Assembly: GCA_030550175.1 (NCBI GenBank) | Contig: JAUQPW010000089.1 | Span: 1 to 24,981 of the forward strand | Direction: 5' to 3' | Origin: a bacterium | Lineage (GTDB): Bacteria > Moduliflexota > Moduliflexia > Moduliflexales > JAUQPW01 | DNA length: 24,981 nt | Shown here: positions 501 to 22,200 of the stretch, piece after piece | Layout of the letters: each line of letters begins with the position of its first letter | Numbering within the stretch: position 1 is the stretch's first letter | The notes under the pieces: generated by a model | The model's database searches: none | What the model saw: the letters and a program-made list of their open reading frames with translations, nothing else | What the model was told of the DNA's origin: nothing | Translations under genes and position numbers: made by a program

Positions 501-3500
501 CTAGTACTCTCGGTTATACATCTTGCCGATGAGGGCAGGTACATCCAAAATCAGAATCACCCGTCCGTCTCCAAGTTTGGAAGCACTGGAAACAATATCT
601 GTTTTGACAATCTTAGTATCCAAGGATTTAATAACCAATTCTTCTTTTTCTAAGGGTTGGTCCGTGACAATCCCTACTAATTCATCTCGTGCAACCCGTA
701 CCACCACTACAAATAACTTCTCATTCTGGATTTTAGGTTGAGGAACTCCCAAAATATCGTAAGGTCTCAGGAGGTGAATGACCTGACCTCTGAGTTGAAA
801 AACCTCCTGTTTTCCTATGATCTCGATGTTCTTTGTTGAAATTCTCAAGACTTCTACCACGAGAGATAAAGGAATGGCAAAAACGCGGTTCCCGATTTCC
901 AGCAGAAGGGCTTGAATAATGGCTAAAGTTAAAGGGAGTTTAACGATAAATCGGGTTCCTTTATTCAGTTGGCTTTCTACTTCTAAGGTACCATTAAGCT
1001 CTTCGATGACCTTACGAGCACTCTGGATTCCCGGACCAAACAAAAAGGAGCTTTCCTCACTTTCAGGAACGACTAATCCCCGATTAAAGAATACATTGAA
1101 AAAGTCAGAAATGGAGAGGTTTTCAGCTTCCTCGGGAGTGAAAAATTTATGTTGGATCGCTAAATTTTTCACCCGTACCAGGTCAGTTCCTCTCCCATCA
1201 TCGGAAATTTCGATAATAATTTGATTGCCGGCATGGTAAGAGTTGAGACTTACTCTACCTGTGGTCGGTTTACCCAGTTGGGCCCGTACAGAGGGAGGTT
1301 CGATTCCATATTCTATAACGCTTCGAAGAAGTTTTGTTAAAGGCTCCCCAATCAGATCCAGAATAGCTTTATCCAGTTCGGTGTGTTCTCCGGTTATTTC
1401 CAACTTCACTTCTTTACCTTTTTTTAGAGCCAGATCTCTAACCAGTCGAGGAAATCGTTTGAATACTACATCGATCGGCATCATGCGAACCTTCATGATA
1501 TTTTCTTGTAAGTTCAACAAATTTTTTCGAACCAACATGTTCGTCTTCATAAGCTGCTCGATCAAACGGGCTGTTTCTCCGGTAGGAAAAATAGAATTTA
1601 ACTTACTTAAACCCTGGGAAAGGGTCGCTCCTCCGATAACCAGTTCCCCAACCACATTCATGATTTCATCCAGCAGTTGATAATCTACACGTAAGGTTTT
1701 TTTAGCCGACGGTGTAGAAGTAAGGGGAGTATAGGAAGAGATTTCGAACTCCTCATCTACAGAATAGGAGGGCACAGGCTCAGAACCCGGTGAAAGGACT
1801 TCTACCCTACGGGTTTCGGATAAGGGGGGAAGTACAAAGGGAGATATACGAACAGCTTGAACAACTGCGGCTACTTTTCCCCGACGTTGGATCAACTCTT
1901 CAGATGCACTACTGGCCAGGATGAGTTGGAAGTGATTTGCTCTTTTTAATTCATTGCTCCCTAAAGGTGGGTTCACTTTGATAACCTCCCCCAGCCGGGA
2001 GAGCTTTCGAGTTACCATAAAAGCACCTGCAGAGTGCAGGGACCAATCGGGTGCAAATTCTATTTCTATTCGGAATACTTTTTTTCCTTTTTCTTGAGCT
2101 TCCTTGAGTTTTACTTCTTCATATCTAATCAGTTCAATACCTTCTTCCTGTTGATGAACCAGAGAGACGGCTGTTTCGGTTAAGGACCCTGTCACCAGTT
2201 GATTAATTTTTGTTAAAAGTGGCGTTAGATCCAGGGGGCTGGTTCCATCTGTTTTATAGTCATTGACCAATCTCCGAAGAGTATCCAGGCAATTAAAAAG
2301 AACGGTAATCGAACCCTGGGTAATAATTCCGTCAGATTTCTGAACGGCCTTAAGGGTCTCTTCCATATGGCGACTCAGGGAATTAATCTTTTCAAATCCG
2401 AGAAATCCCGAATTGCCTTTTAACGTGTGGAAGGCCGTTATAACATTTCTTAGAATATTTCGATCTCCAGGGGCTTTCTCAAGGGCCAGGATTCCTTTCT
2501 CCAGACCTTCCAGGATATCACCGGCCTCCTCGAAGAAAATTTCCAAAAATTCTTCATTTTCTTCTTCCTCCGCAACCCCCCCTTCACGGGTTATGAGAAC
2601 CAGCGAAGGATCTACAGCCTCCAACCATTCCGTTGTATACAATCTCTTTTCCCTAGGCATGGTGGAGATGATCCCGTTTTGAAACAGGAGCTCTCGAAAG
2701 GAAAGAAGCCCTATTTTAAAGAGGTTATCCATCTTCATGGAGTATTTATTGAGGGCCAGAATTTTCTCCAGCTCGATTTTATCAGCAGAAAGGGGCTCCG
2801 ATAAAATTGTGGCCGCTTCTTCTGGATTCTCGTTAATGAAATCTGTTGCCTTTTTAAAGGCCCGGATCAGAGCTTTAAGCGTGTCGGGATGTTGTTGAAG
2901 ATTCTCGTTCAAAACCATGAGAACACTCTGATCTACCAACCAGTTAATCTCTTCCTCATAGCCCGGTATGGCTGAACGGGAACCGGAGAAATAAAATTTA
3001 CCTCCTATGGCCTGGGCCCGGCTAGTCCAGGGTTCCCAACACGCTATCCCATCGACCTCTCCCCGTTGTAGCGCTTCTAACTGTTGAGCGGGAAGCAGGT
3101 CTACAAAGGTAACCCGCGTCAGATCTACTCCAAACTCCCGGGCCATACTCTGAAGGGCAATATAAACCGCGGCCCCTTTCGCCATTCCTATTTTCTTTCC
3201 CTCTAAATCCCTGGGAGTTACAATTCCAGAATCCTCCCGAATCACAACTTGCTGAGTTCCAGAAATATCTGCCAGAGGGGCCACAATTTTAACATCCAGG
3301 CCTCGATCCTGAAGAATGAGCGTGGTAACCGGAGTCTGGGTAAAGGCAAAAGGCTTCTCTTTGGCCTGAATCACTTCATCCGGCATTATGGTTCCAGAGG
3401 GAAGAAGTCGATATTCTACTTGTAGGCCTTCTTCATCAAAAAATCCCTTTTCTTTAGCTAATATCAACTGACTTGAAATGTTTGGATCTTTAACGCCATA

Positions 3501-3533
3501 AAGCTCGATTCTATCCACAACCCCATCCTCCAT
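501..3533 (-). CDS. cheA: CheA-family chemotaxis histidine kinase (1010 aa): N-terminal NMT1/SsuA-like substrate-binding domain, HPt (P1), dimerisation (P3), HATPase (P4) and C-terminal CheW-like (P5) domain
   Basis: The ATG start at 3531-3533 was verified. The N-terminal ~300 aa (VKIVAPLADISGTQQVVIRED...GKKIGMAKGAAVYIALQ...GEVDGIACWEPW) resemble ABC-type nitrate/sulfonate/bicarbonate periplasmic-binding (NMT1/SsuA) folds but have no signal peptide or TM segment. The HPt motif is ITAFHTLKGNSGFLGF, the dimerisation region is DYQLLDEIMNVVGELVI, the ATPase motifs are IEISDDGRGTD and GPGIQSARKVIEELNGTLEVESQLNKGTRF, and the CheW-like tail is RVFAIPLSLVVEVLRI...VVVVRVARDELVGIVTDQ. Confidence 0.85.
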   Translation of the reverse strand: MEDGVVDRIELYGVKDPNISSQLILAKEKGFFDEEGLQVEYRLLPSGTIMPDEVIQAKEKPFAFTQTPVTTLILQDRGLDVKIVAPLADISGTQQVVIREDSGIVTPRDLEGKKIGMAKGAAVYIALQSMAREFGVDLTRVTFVDLLPAQQLEALQRGEVDGIACWEPWTSRAQAIGGKFYFSGSRSAIPGYEEEINWLVDQSVLMVLNENLQQHPDTLKALIRAFKKATDFINENPEEAATILSEPLSADKIELEKILALNKYSMKMDNLFKIGLLSFRELLFQNGIISTMPREKRLYTTEWLEAVDPSLVLITREGGVAEEEENEEFLEIFFEEAGDILEGLEKGILALEKAPGDRNILRNVITAFHTLKGNSGFLGFEKINSLSRHMEETLKAVQKSDGIITQGSITVLFNCLDTLRRLVNDYKTDGTSPLDLTPLLTKINQLVTGSLTETAVSLVHQQEEGIELIRYEEVKLKEAQEKGKKVFRIEIEFAPDWSLHSAGAFMVTRKLSRLGEVIKVNPPLGSNELKRANHFQLILASSASEELIQRRGKVAAVVQAVRISPFVLPPLSETRRVEVLSPGSEPVPSYSVDEEFEISSYTPLTSTPSAKKTLRVDYQLLDEIMNVVGELVIGGATLSQGLSKLNSIFPTGETARLIEQLMKTNMLVRKNLLNLQENIMKVRMMPIDVVFKRFPRLVRDLALKKGKEVKLEITGEHTELDKAILDLIGEPLTKLLRSVIEYGIEPPSVRAQLGKPTTGRVSLNSYHAGNQIIIEISDDGRGTDLVRVKNLAIQHKFFTPEEAENLSISDFFNVFFNRGLVVPESEESSFLFGPGIQSARKVIEELNGTLEVESQLNKGTRFIVKLPLTLAIIQALLLEIGNRVFAIPLSLVVEVLRISTKNIEIIGKQEVFQLRGQVIHLLRPYDILGVPQPKIQNEKLFVVVVRVARDELVGIVTDQPLEKEELVIKSLDTKIVKTDIVSSASKLGDGRVILILDVPALIGKMYNREY

Positions 3534-5159: not shown

Positions 5160-5188
5160 TTGACAAACTTCTCCCGTTTTGGGATAAT
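5160..5188 (+). promoter_or_regulatory. Candidate sigma70-type promoter for the subtilase gene (TTGACA -35, 17-nt spacer, GATAAT -10); AGGAGA RBS at 5210-5215
   Basis: TTGACA is at 5160-5165 and GATAAT at 5183-5188. An AGGAGA Shine-Dalgarno lies 7 nt before the ATG at 5223. Confidence 0.4.
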
Positions 5189-5222: not shown

Positions 5223-7028
5223 ATGAGTTACCGTCGGTATTTTATAGTTTATTATCTGGTTAGTTTCCTGTCTTTTTTCCCCCTACAAAGTGCCGCTCAG
5301 GAGGATGATGGGGAGGTGGTTGTTAATTTTAAAGACAACCTTCCCCAGGAAGAGATTGAGAAAATTGCCCACAAGTATGGAATTCAGTTAACCTATAACA
5401 GCATTTTCTCAAAGCCGGAAGCCCTTACCCGATTTTCAAAGGCAGGGATGGATCCTGACACGCTTCAGAAACTCCTGCAAGCTTTAGCTGCAGAGTCTAC
5501 CGTTGAATATGTAGAACCTAATTATCTTTATCAAGCTTTTGAAATTCCCAATGATCCACTTTTTGATAAACAATGGAACATGAAGTTCATTCAGATGCCG
5601 GAAGCCTGGGATAAAACCCATGGAAAAGGGGTTATCGTGGCCGTTATCGATACGGGAGTTGCCTATGAAGATTATCAAGACAGAAAAGGTGTTTACCACC
5701 GGGTCCAAGATCTGGCAAACACTCAATTTACGGAAGGTTATGATTTTATCGATGATGATACCCATCCCAACGATGATAACGGTCATGGAACCCATGTAGC
5801 CGGAACCATTGCCCAGTCAACCAATAATGGGATTGGGGTGGCAGGAATAGCCTATGAAGCTACCATCATGCCGTTAAAAGTTTTGAACCGGTTTGGGTTC
5901 GGGAATATAGCCGATATTGCTGAAGCTATCCGATATGCAGCGGACCATGGTGTACAGGTTATCAATCTAAGTTTAGGGGGCTTTTTTCCCAGCAGAACTA
6001 TTCAAGAAGCCATGGCCTATGCCCATGATAAAGGCGTGACCCTGGTGTGTGCAGCCGGGAATTCAGGTCGTAGAGGTGTGAGTTTTCCGGCTTCCGATCC
6101 TCATTGTATAGGCATCTCTGCCCTGGGGCCGGATGGAACCCTGGCTCCCTATTCCAGTTACGGTCCGGAGATCGACCTGGCTGCACCGGGCGGAGATACC
6201 AGTAAGGGCATCGGTTATGGAATCCTTCAAAATACTATTGGATACATGGATCCAACCCGGGATGGTTATGAATATTTCCAGGGGACTTCCATGGCGGCAC
6301 CCCACGTGGCGGGTACGGCGGCTCTGATCATCTCCCTGGGGGTGAAAAATCCCGATGAAGTAGAGAAAATCCTCAAAGCCAGTGCAACCCGGCGGACCCA
6401 ACAAGGGGAGTCCCTTTCGAACACTATTACAGGAGAAAACCGGGATGAGAAATACGGCGCCGGACTCCTCAATGCAGCCGCTGCCGTCTCTTCCCTCCGA
6501 CCCGATATCTTTGTTCCGCAAACGGCGATCATACCCGTCAGATTAAAATATCTCCTGGTGGCGATCTTATTAGCCTGGATCTATTTTAAATTCCTTAGAG
6601 GTTTTCACCTGCCCAAGGGGCTTCCCAGACTTCTTTTCTGGCTTGGGTTCCTGTGGGCTTCCTCGGGACTTTTTTTCCTGAATTTTTTCCCCTTCCCCGA
6701 CCTATTAAGCAAGGGTATAACCCCCTTTGTCCAAGCTTTTCCAGATTTAGATTATCCTCTGTTGGGGAGGATTTCGGATTTAAACCCCTTGTTCCATAGC
6801 GCGGTCCTTCCCCTTCTTTTGATCATAACCTTGTTAAGTACAAAATCTCTCAGCCGTTTTGCCCTGGGCTTTACCCTGGGTCTGGCCGCTCATCTAGTGG
6901 TAGATGTTCTTCTAACTTCGGCAACGGTTGCTTATATTCCCGGAAATTTCCTGCTGGATAAAACCTGGCTTTTAGTGAATGCCCTTTTTTCCTTTTGGTT
7001 AGCTTACCTTGCGGGAAAACCCTCGTAG
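5223..7028 (+). CDS. Secreted S8 subtilisin-family serine protease with I9 propeptide, fused to a C-terminal ~5-helix integral-membrane domain
   Basis: The signal peptide is MSYRRYFIVYYLVSFLSFFPLQSAAQ. The catalytic triad motifs are VAVIDTGV (Asp), HGTHVAGTIA (His), NSGRRG (oxyanion region) and GTSMAAPHVAGTAALI (Ser). The C-terminal ~170 aa hold five hydrophobic stretches (YLLVAILLAWIYFKFL, LLFWLGFLWASSGLFFLNFF, VLPLLLIITLLS, FALGFTLGLAAHLVVDVLL, WLLVNALFSFWLAYLAG). Confidence 0.85.
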   Translation: MSYRRYFIVYYLVSFLSFFPLQSAAQEDDGEVVVNFKDNLPQEEIEKIAHKYGIQLTYNSIFSKPEALTRFSKAGMDPDTLQKLLQALAAESTVEYVEPNYLYQAFEIPNDPLFDKQWNMKFIQMPEAWDKTHGKGVIVAVIDTGVAYEDYQDRKGVYHRVQDLANTQFTEGYDFIDDDTHPNDDNGHGTHVAGTIAQSTNNGIGVAGIAYEATIMPLKVLNRFGFGNIADIAEAIRYAADHGVQVINLSLGGFFPSRTIQEAMAYAHDKGVTLVCAAGNSGRRGVSFPASDPHCIGISALGPDGTLAPYSSYGPEIDLAAPGGDTSKGIGYGILQNTIGYMDPTRDGYEYFQGTSMAAPHVAGTAALIISLGVKNPDEVEKILKASATRRTQQGESLSNTITGENRDEKYGAGLLNAAAAVSSLRPDIFVPQTAIIPVRLKYLLVAILLAWIYFKFLRGFHLPKGLPRLLFWLGFLWASSGLFFLNFFPFPDLLSKGITPFVQAFPDLDYPLLGRISDLNPLFHSAVLPLLLIITLLSTKSLSRFALGFTLGLAAHLVVDVLLTSATVAYIPGNFLLDKTWLLVNALFSFWLAYLAGKPS

Positions 7029-7121
7029 GAGGGCGGGAGGGTGGGAGTATGGGGGTGTGGGAGTATGGTGGGGAAATTCTCCCACACTTCCACACTCCCA
7101 TACTCCCACCCTCCCACACTT
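7029..7121. repeat. Inverted pair of the ACTCCCA-octamer repeat family forming a long imperfect hairpin. G-rich arm 7029-7073, 7-nt loop AAATTCT, C-rich arm 7081-7121. Probable terminator-type REP-like element downstream of the subtilase gene.
   Basis: The reverse complement of the 7081-7117 arm (GTGGGAGGGTGGGAGTATGGGAGTGTGG...) matches 7031-7052 (GCGGGAGGGTGGGAGTATGGG...) with few mismatches. The same repeat unit occurs at 1-70 and 13838-13896. Confidence 0.75.
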
Positions 7122-7131
7122 CTTTCTTAGA

Positions 7132-7353
7132 TTGACTCTTCGAGGAATTTTAAAGTTTCATCAACTTGGAACCCGATTCTGGGAACTTATTACCGATAGT
7201 GGAGATCATTACGAGTTGATCGGGGGTGATCCTGGTCTTTATCAAGATGGTGCCCGGGTTGTTGTAACTGGGCAAATACGAGAAGATTTAATGAGTGTGG
7301 GAAATATAGGGCCTATCTTTGAGGTAGATACCTTTAAACAGGAGGAAAAATAG
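7132..7353 (+). CDS. Possible small ORF (~73 aa, TTG start, no RBS) or remnant of a small beta-rich domain protein; the upstream part of the annotated 114-aa ORF is just the repeat element read in frame
   Basis: The C-terminal 55 aa (FWELITDSGDHYELIGGDPGLYQDGARVVVTGQIREDLMSVGNIGPIFEVDTF) have the look of a conserved small domain (Y-E-L-x-G-G ... G-A-R-V-x-V-x-G ... M-S-x-x-x-x-G-P). There is no ATG or GTG start and no SD; the only in-frame start is TTG at 7132. Confidence 0.2.
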   Translation: MTLRGILKFHQLGTRFWELITDSGDHYELIGGDPGLYQDGARVVVTGQIREDLMSVGNIGPIFEVDTFKQEEK

Positions 7354-7360
7354 ATATTTT

Positions 7361-7927
7361 ATGAATTACGAAGAAACTATTCAAAAACTCATATCCGGCG
7401 ACTTTGATGATGCAACCCCTGAGGAACGGGATAAGGTGATCGAGCAGATTATCCATGCTTCTGCTTTAGCTGCTTCTGTATTAGCCATGTCTCCGGTTCC
7501 TTTTATAGAAACACCCATTCAAGTGACCATGGTTCGAGCGATTGGAAAAGTATATGGGTATACATTGGATAAGAAAGTTATCTTTGAAATTCTCTCCTCC
7601 ATTGGAGGGAGTATCGTGCTGCGTCAGTTAGTCCGGTTTATACCCGGTATTGGGACCATCGCGAATCTTTCCAAAGTTTATGGAACGACCTGGGCCATGG
7701 GTATGGTGGCGGATTATTATTTCAGGCAAAATCGTGAGGTGGTAAAAGAAGAACTGATGCGCATGTTTAAGATGACCCAGAAGGAGAAAACCCTGGAAAA
7801 AGAAAAAGAACTTGAAAAAAACCGCATTCCAGAACGACTACAAACCCTCTGGGAGCTATTTCAGAAGAATCTCATTACCCCCGAAGAATATCGGAAGAAA
7901 AGGGAGGAAATCCTTTCTCAGCTATAG
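7361..7927 (+). CDS. Hypothetical protein, DUF697-like (YcjF-like) core with C-terminal SHOCT domain
   Basis: The core segment AMSPVPFIETPIQVTMVRAIGKVYGYTL...FIPGIGTIANLSKVYGTTWAMG resembles the DUF697 region of E. coli YcjF ([31 protein letters not shown]), recalled from memory. The C-terminus LWELFQKNLITPEEYRKKREEILSQL fits the SHOCT short C-terminal motif. An AGGAGG lies about 15 nt upstream of the ATG. Confidence 0.55.
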   Translation: MNYEETIQKLISGDFDDATPEERDKVIEQIIHASALAASVLAMSPVPFIETPIQVTMVRAIGKVYGYTLDKKVIFEILSSIGGSIVLRQLVRFIPGIGTIANLSKVYGTTWAMGMVADYYFRQNREVVKEELMRMFKMTQKEKTLEKEKELEKNRIPERLQTLWELFQKNLITPEEYRKKREEILSQL

Positions 7928-7940
7928 GGCCAAGGTACTT

Positions 7941-9512
7941 TTAATCTCCCAGGACGATCTGAACGGTGCTTTTCTTTCGTCGCAATAGAAAAAGGAAGGG
8001 AAAGGTAATTATGATCAGAATTGCAATGAGCAGAAAGGCGTCTCGAAAGGAGAGGAGTAAAGCCTGTCGGGTTACGGTATGATCTAAGAGGTTCAGAGCG
8101 ATCTTACCCGAGGATTCTGGATTAATGCCTTTGGCCAGAAGTCCCTGTTCCAGTATTTGCAATCGTTGGGTAGTTAAAGGATTTAGAGGGTGGAGGTGTT
8201 CACTGAGGATGGATCGGTGAAAAATTTCCCTTTGTTTGAGAAAGGTGACGAGAATTGCGATCCCGAAACTCCCGCCGGTCTGGCGCATGAAGGTGTAAAT
8301 GCCTGAGGCACTGGCCATGTCTTTCTTTTCCAGGGTACTGAGGGCTGCTATACTCAGGGGAACAAACATAAAGCCGACTCCAATTCCTCGTAGGATCTGA
8401 GGAACGATCAGATCAGAGGTACCAATTTCCAGGGTAAACCGGGACATTTTGTAGAGACCCAGGCTAAAGGTACCTATACCCATGGCAATGACATATTGCG
8501 GAGAAATTCTGGCCATCAGTTTACCCGAAATAAACATGGCAATAGCGGTAGAGATGGAGCTGAGGAGGATCGCCTTTCCGGTCTGCCAGGCCGTGTAATT
8601 TAACAGGGTTTGTAAAAAAACCGGAAGCAGAAAGGTAGGTCCCATGAGTCCGACTCCTAAAAAGGTAGCGATCACAGTTCCGACCCAAAGAGAACGGTTG
8701 GTCAAAACCTTCAAGTTGACCGCAGGATGATCAATTCGAAGTTCCCACCAGACAAAGCTGATTAAAGCCAGCCCGGCTAAGAGGCTAAGTGTTTTAATTC
8801 CATTGGATTCGAACCAGTCTTTCCGTTCCCCCAGTTCCAGGATCACCTGCATACATCCAACGCCTATAGCCAGTAAAATAATCCCCAGGTAGTCTACCTG
8901 GGGAGCCGGGTTTTTAGAGTGGGTAGAGTCTTGTAGAAAGAAATAGGCCAGCAGCAGGGCAAGGCCCCCGACGGGGATGTTGATATAAAAGATCCAGGGC
9001 CAATTATAGTTATCGGTAATCCAACCTCCTAAGGTTGGTCCCAACGTGGGACCGACCATGGTGCCTACTCCAAAAGCCGCCATAGCTCCCCCCTGTTCTT
9101 TAGGTGGAAAGGTTTCCATGAGAAGGGATTGGGAACTGGGAATAAGGGCCCCTCCTCCCATTCCTTGAATGATTCGGAAGAAAACGAGGGCTTCGACACT
9201 CCAGGCAATTCCACAAAAAAAAGAGGCAACGGTAAAGATTCCAATGGATAATGCTAAAAATCTTTTTCGTCCTAACCAGGCCGTAAACCACCCTGTTAAA
9301 GGAAGGACGATGACATTGGCAATAATGTAACCTGTAACCACCCAGTTGATTTCGTCCAGAGTCGCTCCCAGATTACCCATCATATGGGGTAATGCTACAT
9401 TTACGATGCTCACATCGATAGCTTGCAGGAGGGTTCCCAAAACGGCTATCAAGATGATAATCCATTTGTGCTGAGGTTTCACAGGAGATGAAAGGCAAAA
9501 ATCAAAAGGCAA
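7941..9512 (-). CDS. emrB: DHA2-family MFS multidrug efflux transporter (EmrB/QacA type, 14-TMS class)
   Basis: Motifs IDVSIVNVALPHMMGNLGA, GRKRFLALSIGIFTVASFFCG and IIQGMGGGALIPSSQSLL are present with many TM helices, and the gene sits immediately downstream of an HlyD/EmrA gene. The ORF-track start at 9512 is TTG; an in-frame GTG at 9480-9482 is an alternative start. Neither has an SD. Confidence 0.85.
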   Translation of the reverse strand: MPFDFCLSSPVKPQHKWIIILIAVLGTLLQAIDVSIVNVALPHMMGNLGATLDEINWVVTGYIIANVIVLPLTGWFTAWLGRKRFLALSIGIFTVASFFCGIAWSVEALVFFRIIQGMGGGALIPSSQSLLMETFPPKEQGGAMAAFGVGTMVGPTLGPTLGGWITDNYNWPWIFYINIPVGGLALLLAYFFLQDSTHSKNPAPQVDYLGIILLAIGVGCMQVILELGERKDWFESNGIKTLSLLAGLALISFVWWELRIDHPAVNLKVLTNRSLWVGTVIATFLGVGLMGPTFLLPVFLQTLLNYTAWQTGKAILLSSISTAIAMFISGKLMARISPQYVIAMGIGTFSLGLYKMSRFTLEIGTSDLIVPQILRGIGVGFMFVPLSIAALSTLEKKDMASASGIYTFMRQTGGSFGIAILVTFLKQREIFHRSILSEHLHPLNPLTTQRLQILEQGLLAKGINPESSGKIALNLLDHTVTRQALLLSFRDAFLLIAILIIITFPFLFLLRRKKSTVQIVLGD

Positions 9513-9561
9513 AAGGCGAAAGGGCAGATGAAAGCTTTCTTTTACCTTTCGCCTTTTGCCT
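9507..9561. repeat. Perfect 17-bp-stem hairpin (arms 9507-9523 and 9545-9561, 21-nt loop) built from tandem CAAAAGG units, lying exactly at the emrA stop / emrB start junction
   Basis: Upstream tandem copies aaaggcaaaaatcaaaaggcaaaaggcgaaagg are followed by the inverted copy cctttcgccttttgcc. The left arm contains the emrB TTG at 9510-9512, and the right arm ends 2 nt before the emrA stop codon at 9564-9566. Confidence 0.7.
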
Positions 9562-9563
9562 GT

Positions 9564-10892
9564 TTACTTTGCACGGGCACCGCTGATATCGATGGTTACA
9601 AATACAGACATCCCGGGTCGGATGGGATATTCGGGATCTCCCTCGATGGTGATTCGCACGGGGACCCGTTGAACAACCTTAGTAAAGTTACCGGTGGCAT
9701 TATCGGGAGGTAGAAGGGAAAATTTCGCACCGGTTGCAGGGCTGATACTTTCTACTTTTCCTTTAAATACCTTTCCGGGATAGGTATCCACCGTAAATTC
9801 CACCGGCTGACCAACACGGACATACTCCAGTTGGGTTTCCTTCAAATTTGCAACAATCCAGACCTCATCGGGAATCAGGGCCATTATAGGCTGACCTACA
9901 TTGACCCTTTCTCCGACTTCCACCGATCTCTTCCCGATAATCCCATCTACCGGGGCTCTAATTTCCGTGTAGGAGAATCTGAGCAGAGCTGCAGCCAGAT
10001 TCGCTTCGGCCTGGGCCAACTCGGCTTCCAAAGATTTGACTTCCTGACCTTTCATTTCCGTCTCGGTATGACCCGTTTGGGCCAGAACTATCTGGGCTTC
10101 GGTCTGTTTAATCTGGTTTTTAAGAGACTCAATCTTTGCTGCAGCGACCCGTTGAGAAGCCAGGGAGGCTTCATAATTAGACCGGGCTACATTATAGTCT
10201 GAGATCGCTGCATCGAGTTGTTGCTGAGGAATGACGCCTTTAGCCTGGAGTTGCTCTAACCGCTTTCGATCCAGTTCCGCTTTTTCCATTTGAGCTTTAT
10301 ACCCTAGGGTTTCTTTCTCTATACGAGCTAACTCCGCTTGAGCCGTTGCAAGACTTTTTCTCATGGCTTCTGCTTGTGCCCTGGCCTCTGTGATTTTTGC
10401 ATCTGTACGATTTTGCTCAAGGGGTACTGACAGACGCGCAGATGCTAATTTGGCTTTGATAACCTCAACGGCTGCCTTCGCTTGATCTACTTCAATAGCT
10501 AAAGGTTTGGTGTTCAATTGTACAAGCAATTGATCCGCTTTGACACGCTGGTTTACATCCACCAAAACCCGCTCTACAACCCCGGCAGTCCTGGGACTGA
10601 TGGTGATTATTCGACCCTCTACCTGGGCGTTATCAGTAGTTTCATGATTTAAGTAAAAGTAGTAAAGCTTAACCCCATAAGCTACCCCGATAATAAGCAA
10701 AATAAGTACAAGTCCGTAAAGGACCATACGTTTAACGTTTTTTGTAAAAGAAATCTTCCGTTTGATAAGGGGTTGCGAAATCGGATAGTTTAAATTTCCA
10801 TTAGGCCCAGGTAAGGTACGGGGGGGTTCTTTTTCTTCGATTTTATAACTCTTTTCGGGATCGTTAGCGGATATTGTGTCGTCGTCATTCAT
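9564..10892 (-). CDS. emrA: HlyD-family membrane fusion protein (EmrA-like periplasmic adaptor) with N-terminal TM anchor
   Basis: The ATG at 10890-10892 was verified. The TM anchor is MVLYGLVLILLIIGVAYGV, the lipoyl/biotinyl-like region is AQVEGRIITISPRTAGVVERVLVDVNQRVKADQLLVQLN, a long coiled coil follows, and the C-terminal beta domain is VPVRITIE. Confidence 0.85.
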   Translation of the reverse strand: MNDDDTISANDPEKSYKIEEKEPPRTLPGPNGNLNYPISQPLIKRKISFTKNVKRMVLYGLVLILLIIGVAYGVKLYYFYLNHETTDNAQVEGRIITISPRTAGVVERVLVDVNQRVKADQLLVQLNTKPLAIEVDQAKAAVEVIKAKLASARLSVPLEQNRTDAKITEARAQAEAMRKSLATAQAELARIEKETLGYKAQMEKAELDRKRLEQLQAKGVIPQQQLDAAISDYNVARSNYEASLASQRVAAAKIESLKNQIKQTEAQIVLAQTGHTETEMKGQEVKSLEAELAQAEANLAAALLRFSYTEIRAPVDGIIGKRSVEVGERVNVGQPIMALIPDEVWIVANLKETQLEYVRVGQPVEFTVDTYPGKVFKGKVESISPATGAKFSLLPPDNATGNFTKVVQRVPVRITIEGDPEYPIRPGMSVFVTIDISGARAK

Positions 10893-10903
10893 ATCCTAAA
10901 ACA

Positions 10904-10979
10904 TAAAACCTAAAACCTAAAACGTAAAGAGTTAAACCTTACCTCCATTTAATTTTTACATTTTAGGTTTTAGGTTTTA
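10904..10979. repeat. 25-bp inverted repeat with 1 mismatch (arms 10904-10928 and 10955-10979, 26-nt loop) made of tandem CTAAAAC heptamers. It lies between the L,D-transpeptidase stop and the emrA start.
   Basis: taaaacctaaaacctaaaacgtaaa ... tttacattttaggttttaggtttta. The right arm overlaps the transpeptidase stop codon at 10977-10979. The left arm begins 11 nt from the emrA ATG. Confidence 0.75.
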
Positions 10980-11909
10980 TCTCAAGATTTCTTCCAGGAA
11001 AATAGAATAATGAAGCTGCTCCTTCTCTTTATCTAAGAGGAGCCGTTTAGCAGGAGGTCGACTGAGTTTTTTTCGAATGTATTGCTCGATCGACTGGAAC
11101 TGAGCTTCTGCAGTATCAATATACCATTTCAGCCGAGAGAAGTCTATCCTCCTTAAATCAATACGCTGCTGTTGCAAGATTTTTAAAACCTCATCAAAAT
11201 AATCCAATGGTTTATGGTAAATGTTTGCATGGAGGACCAACTCTTCCCGCGGTTCGTTATACTCAACGATTTCATAGCGGATTGAAATGGGCACAGCACG
11301 AGGGAATCTACCGGATCTGATCTCAGGTGCCAGGTAATCATATAAAATCTGCATATCTTCCCTATCGATTCGAATACAACCATTAGAACTGGGAGCCCCG
11401 ACGGTATACCAGTCGGTCGTCTGATGAAGTACAAACTGCTCATAGACTTCCTGGGTCTCGTCACTGAGAATAGACATGAATATCGACTTCATATCCTTCG
11501 GCATGGGAATCTTGATGGGTTTAAGGGTTTTTTTATCAAAGGTGTAAGAGTACTCAATTACCTTTCCAACCAGGTCTTCCGGATTTTGATCCCCATACCG
11601 AAAAACAACTCCGGTTGCCTTGGCATAAAGATATCCTTCCCCGGTTGGAGTCTGGTTAGAAAATTCCGTTCCCCTTCCAACCCCAATAGGAATAGTTAAG
11701 GTTCGCCAGGAATCGCCTCCATCCGGTATATAAAGAACCAGCCGATAAGCCGGAATGTTAATAACCACCTGCTGATTGAAGTTTTTTCCGGAGTTTTCAT
11801 ACGGAAAATCTTCAAGTTTACTGTAAACTACATTGGGAGAAAAAAGATAAATTAAAAAACTTAAGATTAAAAATTGCTTGAACCTCTTCTTTATTTTGCC
11901 TGTTTCCAT
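10977..11909 (-). CDS. Secreted L,D-transpeptidase (YkuD/ErfK domain) family protein
   Basis: The signal peptide is METGKIKKRFKQFLILSFLIYLFSPNVVYS. The catalytic motif HQTTDWYTVGAPSSNGCIRIDREDM matches the H...S-x-G-C-I-R signature of L,D-transpeptidases. The ATG start was verified. Confidence 0.7.
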   Translation of the reverse strand: METGKIKKRFKQFLILSFLIYLFSPNVVYSKLEDFPYENSGKNFNQQVVINIPAYRLVLYIPDGGDSWRTLTIPIGVGRGTEFSNQTPTGEGYLYAKATGVVFRYGDQNPEDLVGKVIEYSYTFDKKTLKPIKIPMPKDMKSIFMSILSDETQEVYEQFVLHQTTDWYTVGAPSSNGCIRIDREDMQILYDYLAPEIRSGRFPRAVPISIRYEIVEYNEPREELVLHANIYHKPLDYFDEVLKILQQQRIDLRRIDFSRLKWYIDTAEAQFQSIEQYIRKKLSRPPAKRLLLDKEKEQLHYSIFLEEILR

Positions 11910-12586: not shown

Positions 12587-13789
12587 ATGAGCGAAATTAT
12601 GACGACGAGTCAAACTTACATGATTTATATACCCGGCCAGAATCGCCTAGAGGAAGGAAATAAGCTGCTTTCTTTTGTAAAGGAACTCAAGAAGATTCAA
12701 ACGGAAAAAAACATTTCTATTCTTATCGAAATGACCCTTCGGCAGGAAGGAGAGGTAAACCGATATCAGATTCGGCAGGGGCAAATCCATCCTATTTCAA
12801 CCCTTCAAGAAAGTTCTTCAGGAGATGGAGAAGGTCTGGGTAATTTTTTAAAATGGAGTCAGGAGCACTATCCTGCAAATCATTATATTCTGGTCATCTG
12901 GAATCACGGAAATCCCTGGAATATCCAGGAGTTCAAATCTGAACCTTTGTATCGAATTCCCTTTCCTTATGAGGTGGTCGCTCGGGCTATCTTTTTAAGT
13001 ACGGCGAAAACCATCCTGACCCAACAGGAACTCAGGGAAACCGTTTATGCGGATCGACAGGCGAGCCTTCGGGATTTCTTAGATATCCTTGAACTCAAAA
13101 AGGCCCTGCAGGGATCGGGGATCCAATTGGGGATCTTGGGACTGGATGGCTGTCTGCCAAACCTGTTGGAAGGGATTAATGAGGTCAAAGGAGCGGTACA
13201 TTTTGTGATTGGTTCAGAGGATGGGGCATGGAAAAAACCCTGGGTACAGGGAGAAATATTCGAAATACCGGCGAAGCAGCCAGATCTCTCCCTTGAAGAT
13301 TTGGCGAGAACCTGGATAAAGCAGCAGAGAGGACCCCAGGGAAAAAAGCCATCTTTATTAAACCTGAGTCATCTTGATCCGGTGGTCCGATCGTTAGATC
13401 GTTTAGCCCGGATCCTTAAAACCCATCTGTTTCAAATGTATGGATTCTTTTCCCAGGTTCGGAGAGAAGTTCGAGTATTTTCCAATCCCAACTACGCCGA
13501 TCTATATGATCTGGCAACTCTTTTAAAAAAGGTAGAAAATCGGGATGACCTTAAAGAAGAGACGGAAAAACTTCTAATTGGAATAAACGCTCTGGTCTTT
13601 GAAGACTCTAAAACAGAGGACACCTTCGATACCCGAAGGGTAGGGATCTTTTTCCCAGAAAATAAGAGAATCTTAACTCCTTATTACCAAAAGCTAGATT
13701 TTGCCGAAACCTGCCCAAATTGGATAGAATTTCTAAAGGCTTACCTGGAGTTTGTACCGACTCAACATGTCCAGCGAGCTCGAATTTAA
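12587..13789 (+). CDS. Clostripain-like (peptidase family C11) cysteine peptidase homologue, cytoplasmic (no signal peptide)
   Basis: The N-terminal architecture (YMIYIPGQNRLEE ... ISILIEMTL ... NRYQI ... SGDGEGLGNFLKWSQEHYPANHYILVIWNHGNPW) follows the C11 pattern YMxxDNNL...V.V.D...TRRY...GDP.TL..FI.W....A.RY.LI.W.HG.GW, which places the catalytic His in WNHG. The hydrophobic strand plus Cys GIQLGILGLDGCLPNLLEG corresponds to the DAC(L/M) catalytic Cys block. Confidence 0.6.
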   Translation: MSEIMTTSQTYMIYIPGQNRLEEGNKLLSFVKELKKIQTEKNISILIEMTLRQEGEVNRYQIRQGQIHPISTLQESSSGDGEGLGNFLKWSQEHYPANHYILVIWNHGNPWNIQEFKSEPLYRIPFPYEVVARAIFLSTAKTILTQQELRETVYADRQASLRDFLDILELKKALQGSGIQLGILGLDGCLPNLLEGINEVKGAVHFVIGSEDGAWKKPWVQGEIFEIPAKQPDLSLEDLARTWIKQQRGPQGKKPSLLNLSHLDPVVRSLDRLARILKTHLFQMYGFFSQVRREVRVFSNPNYADLYDLATLLKKVENRDDLKEETEKLLIGINALVFEDSKTEDTFDTRRVGIFFPENKRILTPYYQKLDFAETCPNWIEFLKAYLEFVPTQHVQRARI

Positions 13790-13899: not shown

Positions 13900-14709
13900 T
13901 CAGGCAGAAATAATACAAATAGCCTCTGGAGTTCTGATATCCGGGACCAGACTTTCAGAGATAGTAAATTCATAAAAAACCTCTCCAAATCCGGAGAATG
14001 AGGTCATCAGATCCTGACCCAGAATAATCTGGTTACCGTTAACTGTATCTAAAAGTACTCCTTTGTTTTGAAGCACAGGAGTTTTAAAAATCCCTTCTGT
14101 AACCAGAGAACGTAGGTTTTCGATTTGGAGAACATCGCTGTCTTTATACAATCGAAACAGGCTGTTATAAAGAGGTGAAGCCAGAACCAGGGCATAGGGT
14201 CCCGGATATCCTGCTTTATCCAGTTGATTGGCAGCTTGAATCACATCTTCAATGGCTTGACCTACCTGACTCCAATCCCCTAACGGGATCTTATGGACAC
14301 CGGGTGTGTTAAGAATACCCGTAATAGAGAGGCTTTCGTAACCGAAAAATACCAGCTCATCCTCTTTAAGGATACAGTTTTTAGCGGCCTGAAATGCTGC
14401 ATCCAGGTCTAGAGGTTGGTGATAAGTTTCGTAAGCCTCAATCATGCTGATACTTAAAGAAAAGGAACTATAGATCTGGGGTATAGGAAGGGTAGGACTA
14501 CAGAGAATTTTAGCTGCTAGGGGGAGCCCTGCTTCTGCTATCCGCTCTGTTTTCGAAACGAGGGCCTTAAAACCAAGCCCGAGGGGGCCCTCTACATCCA
14601 GTAATTTTCTCCCCACCAATAAACTTTTCGCCGTGGAAACAACCAGTTCATCAATTTTCTCCCAAACCTTTGAGCTAATTGGGGCAGCTTCTCGATTGAG
14701 ATATTTCAT
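13900..14709 (-). CDS. Family-1 encapsulin nanocompartment shell protein (HK97 fold; linocin M18/CFP29-like)
   Basis: The length, the N-terminus MKYLNREAAPISSKVWEKIDE...GRKLLDVEGP and the internal ILGQDLMTSF parallel Thermotoga maritima encapsulin ([21 protein letters not shown]...GRKFVDVEGP...ILGQDLSIGY). An AAGGAG SD lies 11 nt upstream and overlaps the stop of the preceding ferritin-like gene. Confidence 0.85.
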   Translation of the reverse strand: MKYLNREAAPISSKVWEKIDELVVSTAKSLLVGRKLLDVEGPLGLGFKALVSKTERIAEAGLPLAAKILCSPTLPIPQIYSSFSLSISMIEAYETYHQPLDLDAAFQAAKNCILKEDELVFFGYESLSITGILNTPGVHKIPLGDWSQVGQAIEDVIQAANQLDKAGYPGPYALVLASPLYNSLFRLYKDSDVLQIENLRSLVTEGIFKTPVLQNKGVLLDTVNGNQIILGQDLMTSFSGFGEVFYEFTISESLVPDIRTPEAICIISA

Positions 14710-17620: not shown

Positions 17621-17645
17621 TATCCCTAAGTCTAAAGTCCCAGGT

Positions 17646-17686
17646 CCAAAGTCCCAAGATCGGAGACTTTGGGCTTGGGACTTTGG
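17646..17686. terminator. 13-bp-stem hairpin (17646-17658 / 17674-17686) built from tandem GTCCCA(A/G)G units, 5 nt downstream of the argG stop. Putative terminator or REP-like element.
   Basis: ccaaagtcccaag atcggagactttggg cttgggactttgg. The flanking sequence agtcccaggtccaaagtcccaag is itself a tandem repeat. There is no clean U-run, so intrinsic-terminator function is uncertain. Confidence 0.4.
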
Positions 17687-17691
17687 GCTGG

Positions 17692-19285: not shown

Positions 19286-22200
19286 ATGTACTTAGAGGAG
19301 ATTATACTATCCGGATTTAAATCTTTTCCAGAGAAGATTCATTTAACCCTCCCCCCCGGCATAACCGTCATTGTAGGTCCTAATGGTTGTGGGAAAAGCA
19401 ACCTGATTGATGCCATTCGGTGGGCACTGGGAGAGCAGAGTGCCAAGCATATGCGCGGTGATTCCATGGAAGACGTGATCTTCAATGGCAACAAAAATCG
19501 GAAGCCGTTGGGGATGGCCGAGGTTTCCCTTCGATTTGTAGATCCTGCCGGAGTTCTTCCCCTGGAATACAGTGAGATCCTCATTACCCGTCGTGTATTT
19601 CGCTCCGGGGAGGGAGAATATTTTCTGAATAAAAAACCGTGTCGTTTACGAGACATTCAAGAACTTTTCATGGACACTGGGATTGGAGCCCGGGCTTATT
19701 CCATCGCCGAGCAAGGAAAAATTGATCTCATTATCCATGCGAAGCCCGAAGAGCGAAGGACCCTTATCGAAGAAGCTGCCGGTATTACCAAGTACAAAGC
19801 TCGCAAGAAAGCGACCCTGGAGAAACTAGAAGCCACTCGACTCAATTTAACCCGAGTTCAAGATATCATCCTGGAAGTCCAACGTCAACTGGAGTCGGTG
19901 AAAAGACAGGTTAAAAAAGCAGAACGTTATCAGACCTATTTGAACGAAATAAAGACCCTTCAGACCCGACTCTATCGCTCCCGGTATCGAGTTCTAAGAG
20001 AAAAACTGGAGCAGAGTACCCTTTCGTTGCAGGCCTTACAGGGAGAAGTAGCCCAATTGGAAACCGAGATCTCAACCCTTCAAGAAGAAGCCGGTCAAAA
20101 AAGGGAGAAACTCCAGAGAGCCGAAGAAAATCTGAATACGATTCGACAACAACTCCAGGGCGCATCCAACACCATCCAGTTACACGAGGCGAAATTAGAG
20201 CAGCTACGACAACAGCTTCTGGATCAAAAAATCATCCTGGAAAAAGGAGATGATATCCTGTCTCGGCTCAGGAAAGAGCAAGGGGAAACAGAAGAGGAGA
20301 TTCAGGCCCAAAAAGCCCGATGGGAAGAGTTATCCCAGGAAATGACCCTTTATCAGCAGAATCTGGAGAGTCAGGAGGAAAGCGTAAAAATCCTGAGCTC
20401 CCAGCTCTCGGAAGCGCAGGCTCAATTGGATAAAGAAAAAGGACAGCTCATGAATCTTCTCATGGACTTGACCCGGGGAAATAATTTAATTCTTCGGCTG
20501 AAAAAAGATAAAGAGAGAGTTTCTTTGAACCTGGCCCGGCTGCAGAAGGAGCAAGAAACAATAGAAGTCCAGAGGAAAGAAAAGGAAGCAGAACTGGAAA
20601 GCCTGAGAGGGGTTGTTCAAGAGCTTCGGGAGAAGAGGGGAGAACTGGATAAAACGGAACCCGTTTTAAGGGAAAAGATTCAGAGTATCGAAAAAACGCT
20701 TCAGGAACTCGGTAAAAAGATAGGATTATTGAAGGATCGACTCAGTCTGAACCGTTCTCGCTTCGAGTCACTGAAAGAGCTTCAAAAAACCTATGCCGGA
20801 TTCAAAGAAGGTACCCGATCTCTCTTGTTGAATCCCGATCTCTCCAGCAGATTGGGAATCCAATCCACCATCCTGGATTTAATTAAAGCCAAACCAGGCT
20901 ATGAAGTTGCCATTGAAGCGATCCTTGGAGATAAAATTCAAACCCTGATTGTAGAGAACTATCAGAAGGGAATAGAAGCGATCGGGTTTTTACGAGAAAC
21001 GAAATCAGGGCGAGGATATTTTATGCCTTTCAAGCGTGGAGACCTCATTTCTTGGGATACAGAGGAGCAGGTACCCGAAGGGGCGGGGGGGCCAGAATCG
21101 AAGAATCAAGGGATCGTCCCTGCGTCCCCGCGTCCCTCTGTTCCTGTATCTATCTTTAACGATGATCCCGATATCATCGGGAGGGCATTTGATTTCATCA
21201 GTTGTAAAGCCGAGTTTAAGGAAACGATTCAGATCCTATTAGATTCGATAGTTGTGGTAGAAAATTTAGAAAAAGCGATTCGGGTTCATCAAAAGTATCC
21301 CTCTTTGATTTGTATCACCCGGGGAGGGGAAGTTTTGGACGCTCAAGGAATTCTTTATGGGGGGGCGAGCCAGCGGTTGGAGACCGGTTTCTTAGCCAAA
21401 AAGGGGGAAATGGACAGGTTAAAGCAGCAGGTTGAAAACTATGAACAGGGCTTACAAAGGCTTCTTCAGGTAGAAGGTGAAATTAAAAATAAGCTTGAGC
21501 TTTACCAGGGTGCTTTAAAAAATTTAGAGAAGACGCGACGCGAGCAAGAAATCAATTTGATCAATAGAGAAAATGCCGTAAACCAGTTAGAACGAGACCT
21601 GGAGCAGTTAAGAAAGCGTTTAGAGTTTATAGACCTGGAGCAATCTCAATTGGGTCAGGAAATAACAGGAATAGACGGGGAATTAGCCAAAACTCTTGGA
21701 ATCAAACAGAATTTGGAGGAAAAAAAGGTCGAAAAGGAGGAGAGAATTGCCGACTTACAAAATAAAGTTCAACAGAGTCGAGAACAACAGGATCGAGCGG
21801 TAGCCGGGCTAACCGACAGCAAAGTTCATTATACGGCCCTGAAGGAAAAGCTACGCGGACTTGACCAGGATATCAGGCGACTCGCAGAACGGAGTCAATC
21901 CCTGGCTTTACAGATCCAGGAGACCCAGGAGCGGATTACCACAGCCCGGAATCGACGGGAGGAGTATGAAATAGCCATACAAGAAACCCAAGATATCCTT
22001 GAAAGCCTCCTGGATTCCAGGGAAAAGCTTGAGAAAAAGGAGAAGGTTCATCAGGAAAAACATCTGGCTACCGCCCGGGAACTGGAAAATGCCCAACGAA
22101 TTTTAAAAGAGCGTGAGGAAAGTTATCGGGTTGTCCATGAAAGATTGAAGGCCGAAGAAATTAAAAATACCGAACTGCGCGTTACCCTTGAGCATGTTAA

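Follow-up and report, generated by a model that had tools for sequence, protein, structure and literature searches.

The 24,981-nucleotide stretch of DNA analysed here (positions 1 to 24,981 of the forward strand of contig JAUQPW010000089.1, assembly GCA_030550175.1, from a bacterium of the Moduliflexota), referred to as the window, carries a gene for a subtilase, a protease of the S8 family, whose catalytic domain is followed by a membrane domain of the Pfam family DUF5942. Downstream on the same strand, beyond a repeat-built hairpin, lies a small gene of the family DUF5818 (Table 1). The fusion of S8 and DUF5942 is already catalogued, widespread and not unusual; what is new here is that DUF5942 can be classed with the YdjM/DUF457 proteins, as a branch that has degenerated, and that S8-DUF5942 and DUF5818 genes are linked.

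The initial annotation of the open reading frame (ORF) as an S8 subtilase is confirmed at the same coordinates, with residues 134-396 matching Peptidase_S8 (PF00082) at an E-value of 5.5e-58 (197 bits against a cutoff of 21.8). The catalytic residues are found in the order Asp-His-Ser, together with the oxyanion Asn, in canonical motifs (D-T/S-G, H-G-T-H, G-T-S-M-A and G-N). These residues, D143, H188, N280 and S356, which we take from their motifs to be the counterparts of D32, H64, N155 and S221 of subtilisin BPN', are invariant in two orthologue alignments (n = 117 and n = 20). Since the set is intact and invariant, the protease domain should be catalytically competent. An I9 propeptide had also been proposed, but the Pfam scan listed no match of the protease to Inhibitor_I9 (PF05922) at E <= 10; residues 29-100 instead match the Fervidolysin_NPro-like family PF22148 (E 6e-5, 23.8 bits, cutoff 21), which by its family assignment is a subtilase prodomain of the same functional class as I9. 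Most of 150 orthologues have signal peptides of the classic Sec or lipobox type, the lipobox being found in many Myxococcota. Export by the Tat pathway was considered on account of the twin-arginine-like N-terminus of the window protein (SYRRYFIV) and was rejected, as the pattern RR-x-hydrophobic is present in only 6 of the 150 orthologues and there is no conserved twin-arginine motif; if real, Tat export would have accounted for a cytoplasmic DUF5818 partner (see below). Upstream of the start codon there is a near-consensus sigma-70-type promoter-like site (TTGACA-17-GATAAT with a TG extension, 11 of 12 matches), which suggests that the protease gene has a promoter of its own and is likely transcribed apart from the upstream inositol-1-phosphate synthase gene.

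The C-terminal tail had been predicted to contain five transmembrane (TM) helices, and this was borne out by three lines of analysis, which point to five such helices and not to a single one. A Kyte-Doolittle scan of the protease found the N-terminal signal sequence and five hydrophobic segments in the tail, the boundaries of which are approximate. The AlphaFold2 (AF2) model of residues 421-601, made with 30 aligned tails (predicted local distance difference test score, pLDDT, 88.5; predicted template modelling score, pTM, 0.86), shows long helices matching the five hydrophobic segments and, within the long outer loop between TM2 and TM3, two short helices. Finally, across 117 sequences, the segments predicted to be cytoplasmic, three in number and 7-12 residues long, contain 2.6, 2.1 and 2.2 lysine plus arginine (K+R), and outer loop 4 has 0.15 K+R and 1.26 aspartate plus glutamate. 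By the positive-inside rule the tail would thus have its N-terminus outside and its C-terminus inside, below the exported protease. The linker from the S8 domain to TM1 has a median length of 12 residues across orthologues, and this short distance means that the catalytic domain must sit near the membrane surface.

Table 1. Coordinates of the protease gene, its domains and residues, and the features that flank it (positions in the window; residues numbered in the protease)
Feature	Position	Strand	Details	Basis
Promoter-like site	5160..5188	+	35 nt 5' of the start codon	Consensus match alone
S8-DUF5942 protease gene	5223..7028	+	ATG start, 601 aa plus stop	ORF call, Pfam, orthologues
Predicted Sec-type signal peptide	5223..5297	+	Residues 1-25, cleavage between ...LQSAA and QE	Hydropathy; cleavage site inferred
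N-terminal prodomain, Fervidolysin_NPro-like (PF22148)	5307..5522	+	Residues 29-100	Pfam
S8 catalytic domain	5622..6410	+	Residues 134-396	PF00082
D143	5649-5651	+	Catalytic Asp	
H188	5784-5786	+	Catalytic His	
N280	6060-6062	+	Oxyanion Asn	
S356	6288-6290	+	Catalytic Ser	
DUF5942 five-TM domain	6537..7019	+	Residues 439-599	Pfam, hydropathy, AF2 model
Tail TM1		+	Residues 441-457	Hydropathy
Tail TM2		+	Residues 470-489	Hydropathy
Tail outer loop, TM2-TM3		+	With FPDLD, 506-510	
Tail TM3		+	Residues 522-539; NPLFHS, 521-526	Hydropathy
Tail TM4		+	Residues 547-566; GLAAHLVVD, 553-561	Hydropathy
Tail TM5		+	Residues 580-598; WLLVN, 582-586	Hydropathy
Repeat-built hairpin between protease stop and DUF5818 start	7035..7115	+	Arms 7027-7068 / 7082-7123	
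DUF5818 partner gene	7132..7353	+	73 aa, TTG start, no signal peptide, predicted OB fold	

The tail matches DUF5942 (PF19366) over residues 439-599 with an E-value of 1.9e-15 and 57.6 bits in the context of the full protein, and with 9.8e-17 and 61.8 bits when it is searched alone (cutoff 23.8). It had been suggested that it might prove to be a novel family, which is not the case, and the fusion is not unusual either: PF00082 and PF19366 are combined, in proteins of about 590-620 aa, in over 100 of the clusters (at 90% identity) that a full-length search retrieved, and this is the architecture of nearly all full-length DUF5942 matches in that search. Among them are a metagenomic protein (P0003) with 90% identity to the window protease, proteins of Candidatus Vecturithrix/candidate division KSB3 (54-57%) and, at 41-46%, those of Eremiobacterota, Schekmanbacteria, metagenome-assembled genomes (MAGs) labelled Firmicutes, and Myxococcota such as Corallococcus terminator. 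When a tail profile was searched exhaustively against 1.84 billion proteins, it matched 556 representatives (50% identity), of which 280 had E <= 1e-10. The 144 matches that were newly listed in this way comprise 35 full-length fusions, 24 partial sequences with S8 motifs and 85 short sequences without them; in the last group, pieces of fusion proteins are mixed with true standalone proteins, which are about 165-230 aa long. Two distant standalone proteins were all that a word-indexed search with the tail by itself recovered. Scanning the species representatives of GTDB with the full-length alignment yielded 80 genome loci (L010-L089) and located the fusion in many cultivated Cyanobacteria (Nostoc, Fischerella PCC 9431, Calothrix NIES-3974, Microcoleus vaginatus, Lyngbya aestuarii, Tolypothrix, Rivularia and Pleurocapsales), in Myxococcota (Archangium, Corallococcus, Cystobacter, Hyalangium, Kofleriaceae, Polyangia and Nannocystales), and in Armatimonadota and Vulcanimicrobiota. 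The combination of an S8 domain with a polytopic tail is consequently conserved in several phyla, far beyond the genome from which the window comes. The fusion is concentrated in large-genome filamentous or social bacteria, namely heterocystous and filamentous Cyanobacteria, Myxococcota and the bulking filaments of KSB3, which could be a correlation with lifestyle or simply an effect of genome size. No mention of DUF5942 was found in the literature searched, a search for multi-TM subtilases in cyanobacteria gave nothing relevant, and NCBIfam has no model for the tail or for the standalone DUF5942 relatives.

E. coli YdjM is an inner membrane protein that is SOS-regulated and predicted to be a membrane-bound metal-dependent hydrolase. 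The window tail has no match to the YdjM family (PF04307) or to PF00882 in Pfam even at E <= 10, and for want of a PF04307 score it is filed under DUF5942 and not under YdjM. The connecting sequences are the standalone DUF5942 proteins, which carry the motifs EHSLVG, FPDLDIRxLGIxGHRNPLFHS and GLASHLxxD. In Pfam searches nine of 12 of these match PF04307 at E <= 1.2e-3 and in a constant register, and a tenth is a weak match (E 0.38). The gathering score is just attained by P0260, with 29.0 bits, P0264 has 27.2 bits, and for P0211 the YdjM score exceeds the DUF5942 score. Weak matches to Zn_dep_PLPC and DUF4184 accompany them. A profile built from fused tails only aligns with the standalone DUF5942 profile at an hhalign probability of 99.7% (E 4e-27, 103 columns), and the standalone profile, in a one-to-one test, aligns with E. 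coli YdjM at E 6e-6, with GHRxxxHS...SHxxxD placed motif to motif. A direct hhalign comparison of a mixed tail alignment with the single E. coli YdjM sequence is weak (probability 2%, E 0.022), with the correct motifs aligned, and the kinship is therefore established through the standalone intermediates. As judged from these profile comparisons, the DUF5942 tail is a divergent and degenerate relative of YdjM/DUF457 at the superfamily level, in which GLAAHLVVD corresponds to the S-H-x-x-x-D motif of YdjM. Of the families named as candidates in the initial annotation, DUF457/YdjM holds at this superfamily level but not as a direct match of the window tail, and CPBP falls away, as CPBP/Abi (PF02517) gave no tail match at E <= 10 and its EExxxR and FxxxH motifs are absent from the sequence. 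A report of DUF457 acting as a pore in the CRISPR effector Cap1 (bioRxiv) was set aside, because the domain named there is the unrelated DUF4579. One standalone DUF5942/YdjM-like protein (P0001), found on Thiotrichaceae metagenome contigs (L007, 8001-8507; L008, 5684-6190), starts at the last base of a gene of the PBP1C type (Transgly, Transpeptidase and BiPBP_C domains), which gives a hint of a cell-envelope link for the standalone branch.

The His and Asp residues on which the prediction of a metal-dependent hydrolase is based have been preserved unevenly. The window tail retains D508/D510, H525-S526 and H557/D561 of the YdjM set (PDxD, GHRxxxHS and SHxxxD), and it has lost two of the four His positions: the N-terminal His of the standalone proteins (EHS) is a Ser, and the His of GHRNP is D519. 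By the predicted topology D508/D510, H525, H557, D561 and D579 all lie toward the outer leaflet. Of 117 sequences of the fused family, 48 have kept H525, 72 have kept H557 and 43 have kept D561, and most fused lineages do not have the motif set. It is lost in Cyanobacteria, where the nine motif sites read G-x-A-S-C-S-A-F-N, and in most Myxococcota, including the Cystobacterineae, where they read Q/N-L-Y-S-F/I-A/T-A-W-N; in both of these groups every His and Asp of the motif has been replaced. The stretch GLAAHLVVD had been described as containing conserved-looking polar residues, and this is accurate for the clade of the window, in which it is kept, but not for Cyanobacteria and Cystobacterineae. 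What is conserved in at least 90% of the tails is a different set, G482, F484/F485, G515, S526, P530, G549, G553, P573, W582, L583 and N586, of which G482, S526, G553, P573, W582, L583 and N586 reach at least 95%. As the ligand sites have been lost from whole lineages, we conclude that the putative metal ligands are not required for what the tail does across the family, and this speaks against a membrane-embedded hydrolase as its general function; a coupling to the processing of membrane substrates or to signalling, also put forward in the initial annotation, is conjectural. We infer from the same loss that the family-wide role of the tail is more likely that of a structured anchor or scaffold than that of a second catalytic activity.

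The neighbourhood of the protease was also compared, and a single neighbour in the window, the DUF5818 gene, recurs in other lineages; the CheA fusion, the inositol-1-phosphate synthase, the DUF697/SHOCT protein and an MFS/HlyD efflux pair do not. The product of this gene in the window scores 26.3 bits against PF19135 (E 5.6e-6), just below the cutoff of 27, and its orthologues P0267, P0268 and P0271 and the genes of loci L003-L005 carry PF19135 in precomputed tables, several of them marked as weak. Its TTG start is assigned because the orthologues P0271, P0269 and P0270 begin with MTFKG or MTLRG. The family was recognised in the window, in L001 and in L003-L005, lying 3' of the protease in L001, Corallococcus, an Eremiobacterota MAG and a Schekmanbacteria MAG and often overlapping the protease stop codon; in the Vecturithrix locus (L002) a 75-aa ORF with no Pfam match on record occupies the same position and is matched by an iterated hidden Markov model (HMM) at E 8e-27. 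A DUF5818 HMM built from six partner proteins was then applied to the 80 genome loci, of which 67 have a tail-bearing protease and 13 a tail-less S8 protease. In 40 of the 67 tail-bearing loci, and in none of the 13 tail-less ones, the protease gene is closely followed by a DUF5818 gene of the same orientation, so that the search for a conserved neighbourhood had a positive outcome. The partner is near-universal in Cyanobacteria and Cystobacterineae and absent from Kofleriaceae, Polyangia, Nannocystales and Chthonomonadaceae; within the Myxococcota its presence or absence goes by lineage. Long ORFs at L019, L061 and L023 were considered as natural S8-DUF5942-DUF5818 fusions and rejected, as they are stop-free, out-of-frame stretches in GC-rich DNA with the protease in another frame.

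DUF5818 proteins have about 70 residues, are mostly acidic and carry no signal peptide, for which the stop-to-stop ORFs of 75-90 codons leave no room; the protein is accordingly predicted to be cytoplasmic. The best AF2 model is a five-stranded barrel, a minimal oligonucleotide/oligosaccharide-binding (OB) fold, with a pLDDT of 90.2, and the other four models, from the same shallow alignment, have values of about 60. In a Foldseek search with the model SSB and IF1 were ranked above potempins, with nothing at E <= 1e-3. The most conserved segment is the beta4-beta5 loop, which contains a conserved Met and reads R-E-D-L-M-S-V-G-N-I-G-P in the window against a consensus of vr-D-x-m-T-x-A-M-i-G-P-V. 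No mention of DUF5818 was found in the literature searched, NCBIfam has no model for it, and a sequence search of the PDB returned nothing meaningful. A known defence system was ruled out as an explanation, as PADLOC gave only generic subtilase and IetS-like S8 matches, and none for DUF5818.

Taken together, the explanation that we favour, and consider somewhat more probable than improbable as a whole, is of a subtilase with a YdjM-derived anchor and a small partner. The protease would be exported by Sec, activated through its prodomain and catalytically competent, and the five-helix DUF5942 domain, after its short linker, would tether it to the outer side of the cytoplasmic membrane, the domain itself being oriented N-out/C-in. 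This membrane domain would derive from YdjM/DUF457, small polytopic proteins with His/Asp motifs that are predicted hydrolases; in the fusion family the His/Asp ligands appear to be dispensable, and the universally kept Gly, Pro, Ser, Trp and Asn residues would define the fold. Such a scaffold could place the active site beside the membrane surface for the cutting of envelope or membrane-proximal proteins, and it may offer a docking surface, a second catalytic activity being unlikely. The protease would usually be part of a two-gene unit with the downstream DUF5818, a cytoplasmic OB-fold protein of about 70 aa by prediction, and the leading guess is that DUF5818 controls or safeguards the protease. 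Several observations weigh against this explanation. In the clade of the window (about 45 sequences, 50-90% identity) D508/D510, H525, H557, D561 and D579 are all kept, so that a metal site, and possibly an activity, may persist there. A single TM helix would suffice for anchoring, and yet the specific five-TM fold has been kept across phyla, which implies a function beyond that of a plain tether. DUF5818 is missing from 25 of the 65 tail-bearing loci with sufficient downstream sequence, and the iterated HMM recovered no partner in these 25. With DUF5818 predicted in the cytoplasm and the S8 domain outside, a direct interaction is not straightforward. To our knowledge, there is no demonstrated biochemical function for any member of DUF5942, DUF5818 or YdjM.

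A specific form of such control would be inhibition: DUF5818, with its OB fold, would be dedicated to inhibiting the subtilase transcribed along with it, blocking any enzyme that has folded before export and using the beta4-beta5 loop as its reactive loop; it would combine the fold and loop logic of the potempins with the cytoplasmic location of the staphostatins. Staphostatins are a precedent for a cytoplasmic safeguard, and a role of this kind would reconcile a cytoplasmic DUF5818 with an exported protease. The linkage is tight, often overlaps the stop codon and is specific to the S8-DUF5942 subfamily, and the acidic nature of most DUF5818 proteins fits ill with nucleic-acid binding. Potempins are OB-fold inhibitors that are co-transcribed with their target peptidases, the KLIKK-peptidases of Tannerella forsythia, and they inhibit by means of loops situated between beta4 and beta5; in the case of PotC, Met126 takes the P1 position when the S8 subtilase mirolase is blocked (PMC9890683). 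The conserved, Met-containing loop of DUF5818 occupies the equivalent place in the five-stranded barrel of the best model. However, the membrane would separate the two proteins in their mature form, DUF5818 having no signal peptide and the protease a Sec signal or lipobox; four of the five AF2 models are of low confidence; the Foldseek ranking favours SSB and IF1; and potempins are lipoproteins whose genes are located upstream of those for the peptidases. On balance the inhibitor reading is doubtful.

It is also rather unlikely, but conceivable, that the protein is bifunctional in the clade of the window, the tail still being an active YdjM-type, membrane-embedded and metal-dependent hydrolase at the outer leaflet that shares a lipid-linked or membrane-embedded substrate with the subtilase and acts on it jointly. 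D508, D510, H525, H557, D561 and D579 are conserved throughout the KSB3-like clade, they align with PDxD, xxHS and SHxxxD of the standalone DUF5942 proteins and of E. coli YdjM, they are on the same side of the membrane as the S8 domain in the predicted topology, and standalone members weakly match Zn_dep_PLPC. This has to be set against the replacement of two of the four standalone His positions in the window protein (by Ser and D519), against whole phyla with the same architecture and partner that have no His or Asp at these sites, and against the lack of a PF04307 or PF00882 match at E <= 10; YdjM itself is, as far as we know, without demonstrated activity.

A third reading reduces the five helices to an anchor and nothing else, and DUF5818 to unrelated operon baggage. 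The dispensable ligand-like residues fit with it, and it is established knowledge that membrane anchoring of subtilases by other means is common, the best NCBIfam match here being to a mycosin. Nevertheless we regard it as very unlikely, because about a dozen tail positions are at least 90% conserved across phyla where TM anchors normally drift freely, because the fold is shared with standalone proteins (the hhalign match at 99.7%), and because the distribution of DUF5818, 40 of 67 against 0 of 13 loci, would hardly arise by chance. That the protease is a mycosin-like component of a type VII secretion system (T7SS) or similar machine is effectively refuted: the best NCBIfam match is indeed the T7SS mycosin model TIGR03921 (E 2.8e-53), but its 181.3 bits are far under the cutoff of 278.75, mycosins are located in ESX loci and have one C-terminal TM helix and not DUF5942, and no ESX/T7SS genes are present in the window or in six related loci.

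Between the protease and DUF5818 genes, which abut or overlap in other lineages, the window has the hairpin listed in Table 1; it is built of short tandem repeat units and has a minimum free energy of -82.6 kcal/mol (z -9.2), with none of 200 shuffled sequences folding as well. It could conceivably serve as a stabiliser of the mRNA or as an attenuator. L001 has a related insert of different sequence between the same two genes. Similar repeat-derived palindromes are found between other gene pairs of the window (9498-9570, 10897-10980 and 17629-17689), which suggests a genome-wide family of intergenic elements. Elsewhere in the window, positions 501-3533 (-) encode a 1010-aa CheA-type histidine kinase (Hpt, P2, H-kinase_dim, HATPase_c and CheW) with an N-terminal NMT1/THI5-like domain of the solute-binding type, an unusual sensor fusion that is conserved in L001 and there followed by a response-regulator gene. 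A DUF697 and SHOCT protein (7361-7927, +), which starts 8 nt after the DUF5818 stop and is conserved in L001 only, has a weak PADLOC match to the candidate system PDC-S29 (E 1.5e-5). A C11 peptidase of the clostripain family (12587-13789, +) adjoins an encapsulin shell protein, Linocin_M18 (13900-14709, -), and a 1222-aa ORF (19286-22954, +) is followed by one of 395 aa (23000-24187, +).

The window copy in itself matters little, as it has a catalogued Pfam architecture that is present in hundreds of genomes and shows no new feature. The placing of DUF5942 as a degenerate YdjM/DUF457 branch gives a common frame to two 'unknown' families, and it shows that the largest branch can do without the His/Asp motif from which the label 'metal-dependent hydrolase' derives. 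The linkage to DUF5818 offers a testable two-component unit in tractable organisms (Nostoc and its relatives, and relatives of Myxococcus). It can be proposed, tentatively and with considerably more doubt than belief, that Cyanobacteria, Myxococcota, KSB3 and allied phyla share a conserved module of two genes, S8-DUF5942 and DUF5818, which has gone unrecognised and in which a cytoplasmic minimal OB-fold protein controls an extracytoplasmic subtilase, and in which the tail of the window clade might also retain a metal site. If so, DUF5818 could represent a new family of co-transcribed subtilase inhibitors that guards the cytoplasm; alternatively, it could dock on the cytoplasmic face of the tail, with the domain relaying information across the membrane. 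A role as subtilase inhibitor or regulator would add a new inhibitor family and would explain a protease subfamily that is common in filamentous and social bacteria.

Four known systems can be compared with the protease of the window and its partner. The closest are the fusions of the same family, such as the 'peptidase, S8A family' of Candidatus Vecturithrix granuli (P0017) and the protein of Corallococcus terminator (P0093), which have the same domain order, length and invariant residues at a full-length identity of 42-57% and likewise a DUF5818 gene downstream. Nothing essential separates the window protein from the other S8-DUF5942 members, except that its clade retains more of the ancestral His/Asp motif than most and that the repeat-derived hairpin is inserted between its gene and that of DUF5818. 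YdjM resembles the tail in being a small polytopic helical domain in which a loop carries PDxD, one helix opens with xxHS and the following helix contains (S/A)HxxxD; the tail differs in lacking two His residues, the N-terminal one and that of the GHR motif, in a different C-terminal helix with the invariant W-L-x-x-N, and in its fusion to an exported protease, YdjM proteins being standalone. The mycosins (MycP) and other membrane-tethered subtilases, in whose manner the window protease would work, share with it an exported S8 domain that a hydrophobic C-terminal region keeps at the outer face of the cytoplasmic membrane. By score the mycosins are the closest curated S8 subfamily, albeit under the family cutoff, but the window protease has five TM helices, which belong to a conserved family of their own, and its gene has no neighbours from a secretion system. 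Finally, the pair of PotC and mirolase has in common with S8-DUF5942 and DUF5818 that an S8 peptidase is accompanied by a small five-stranded OB-fold protein, the fold in the present case being a predicted one, with a Met in the beta4-beta5 loop of both. Potempins are lipoproteins of 98-132 residues that have signal peptides, are encoded upstream and are located at the outer membrane (PMC9890683), whereas DUF5818 proteins have about 70 residues and no signal peptide, are encoded downstream, and are without detectable sequence similarity to potempins, their match in fold being no better than that to generic OB folds.

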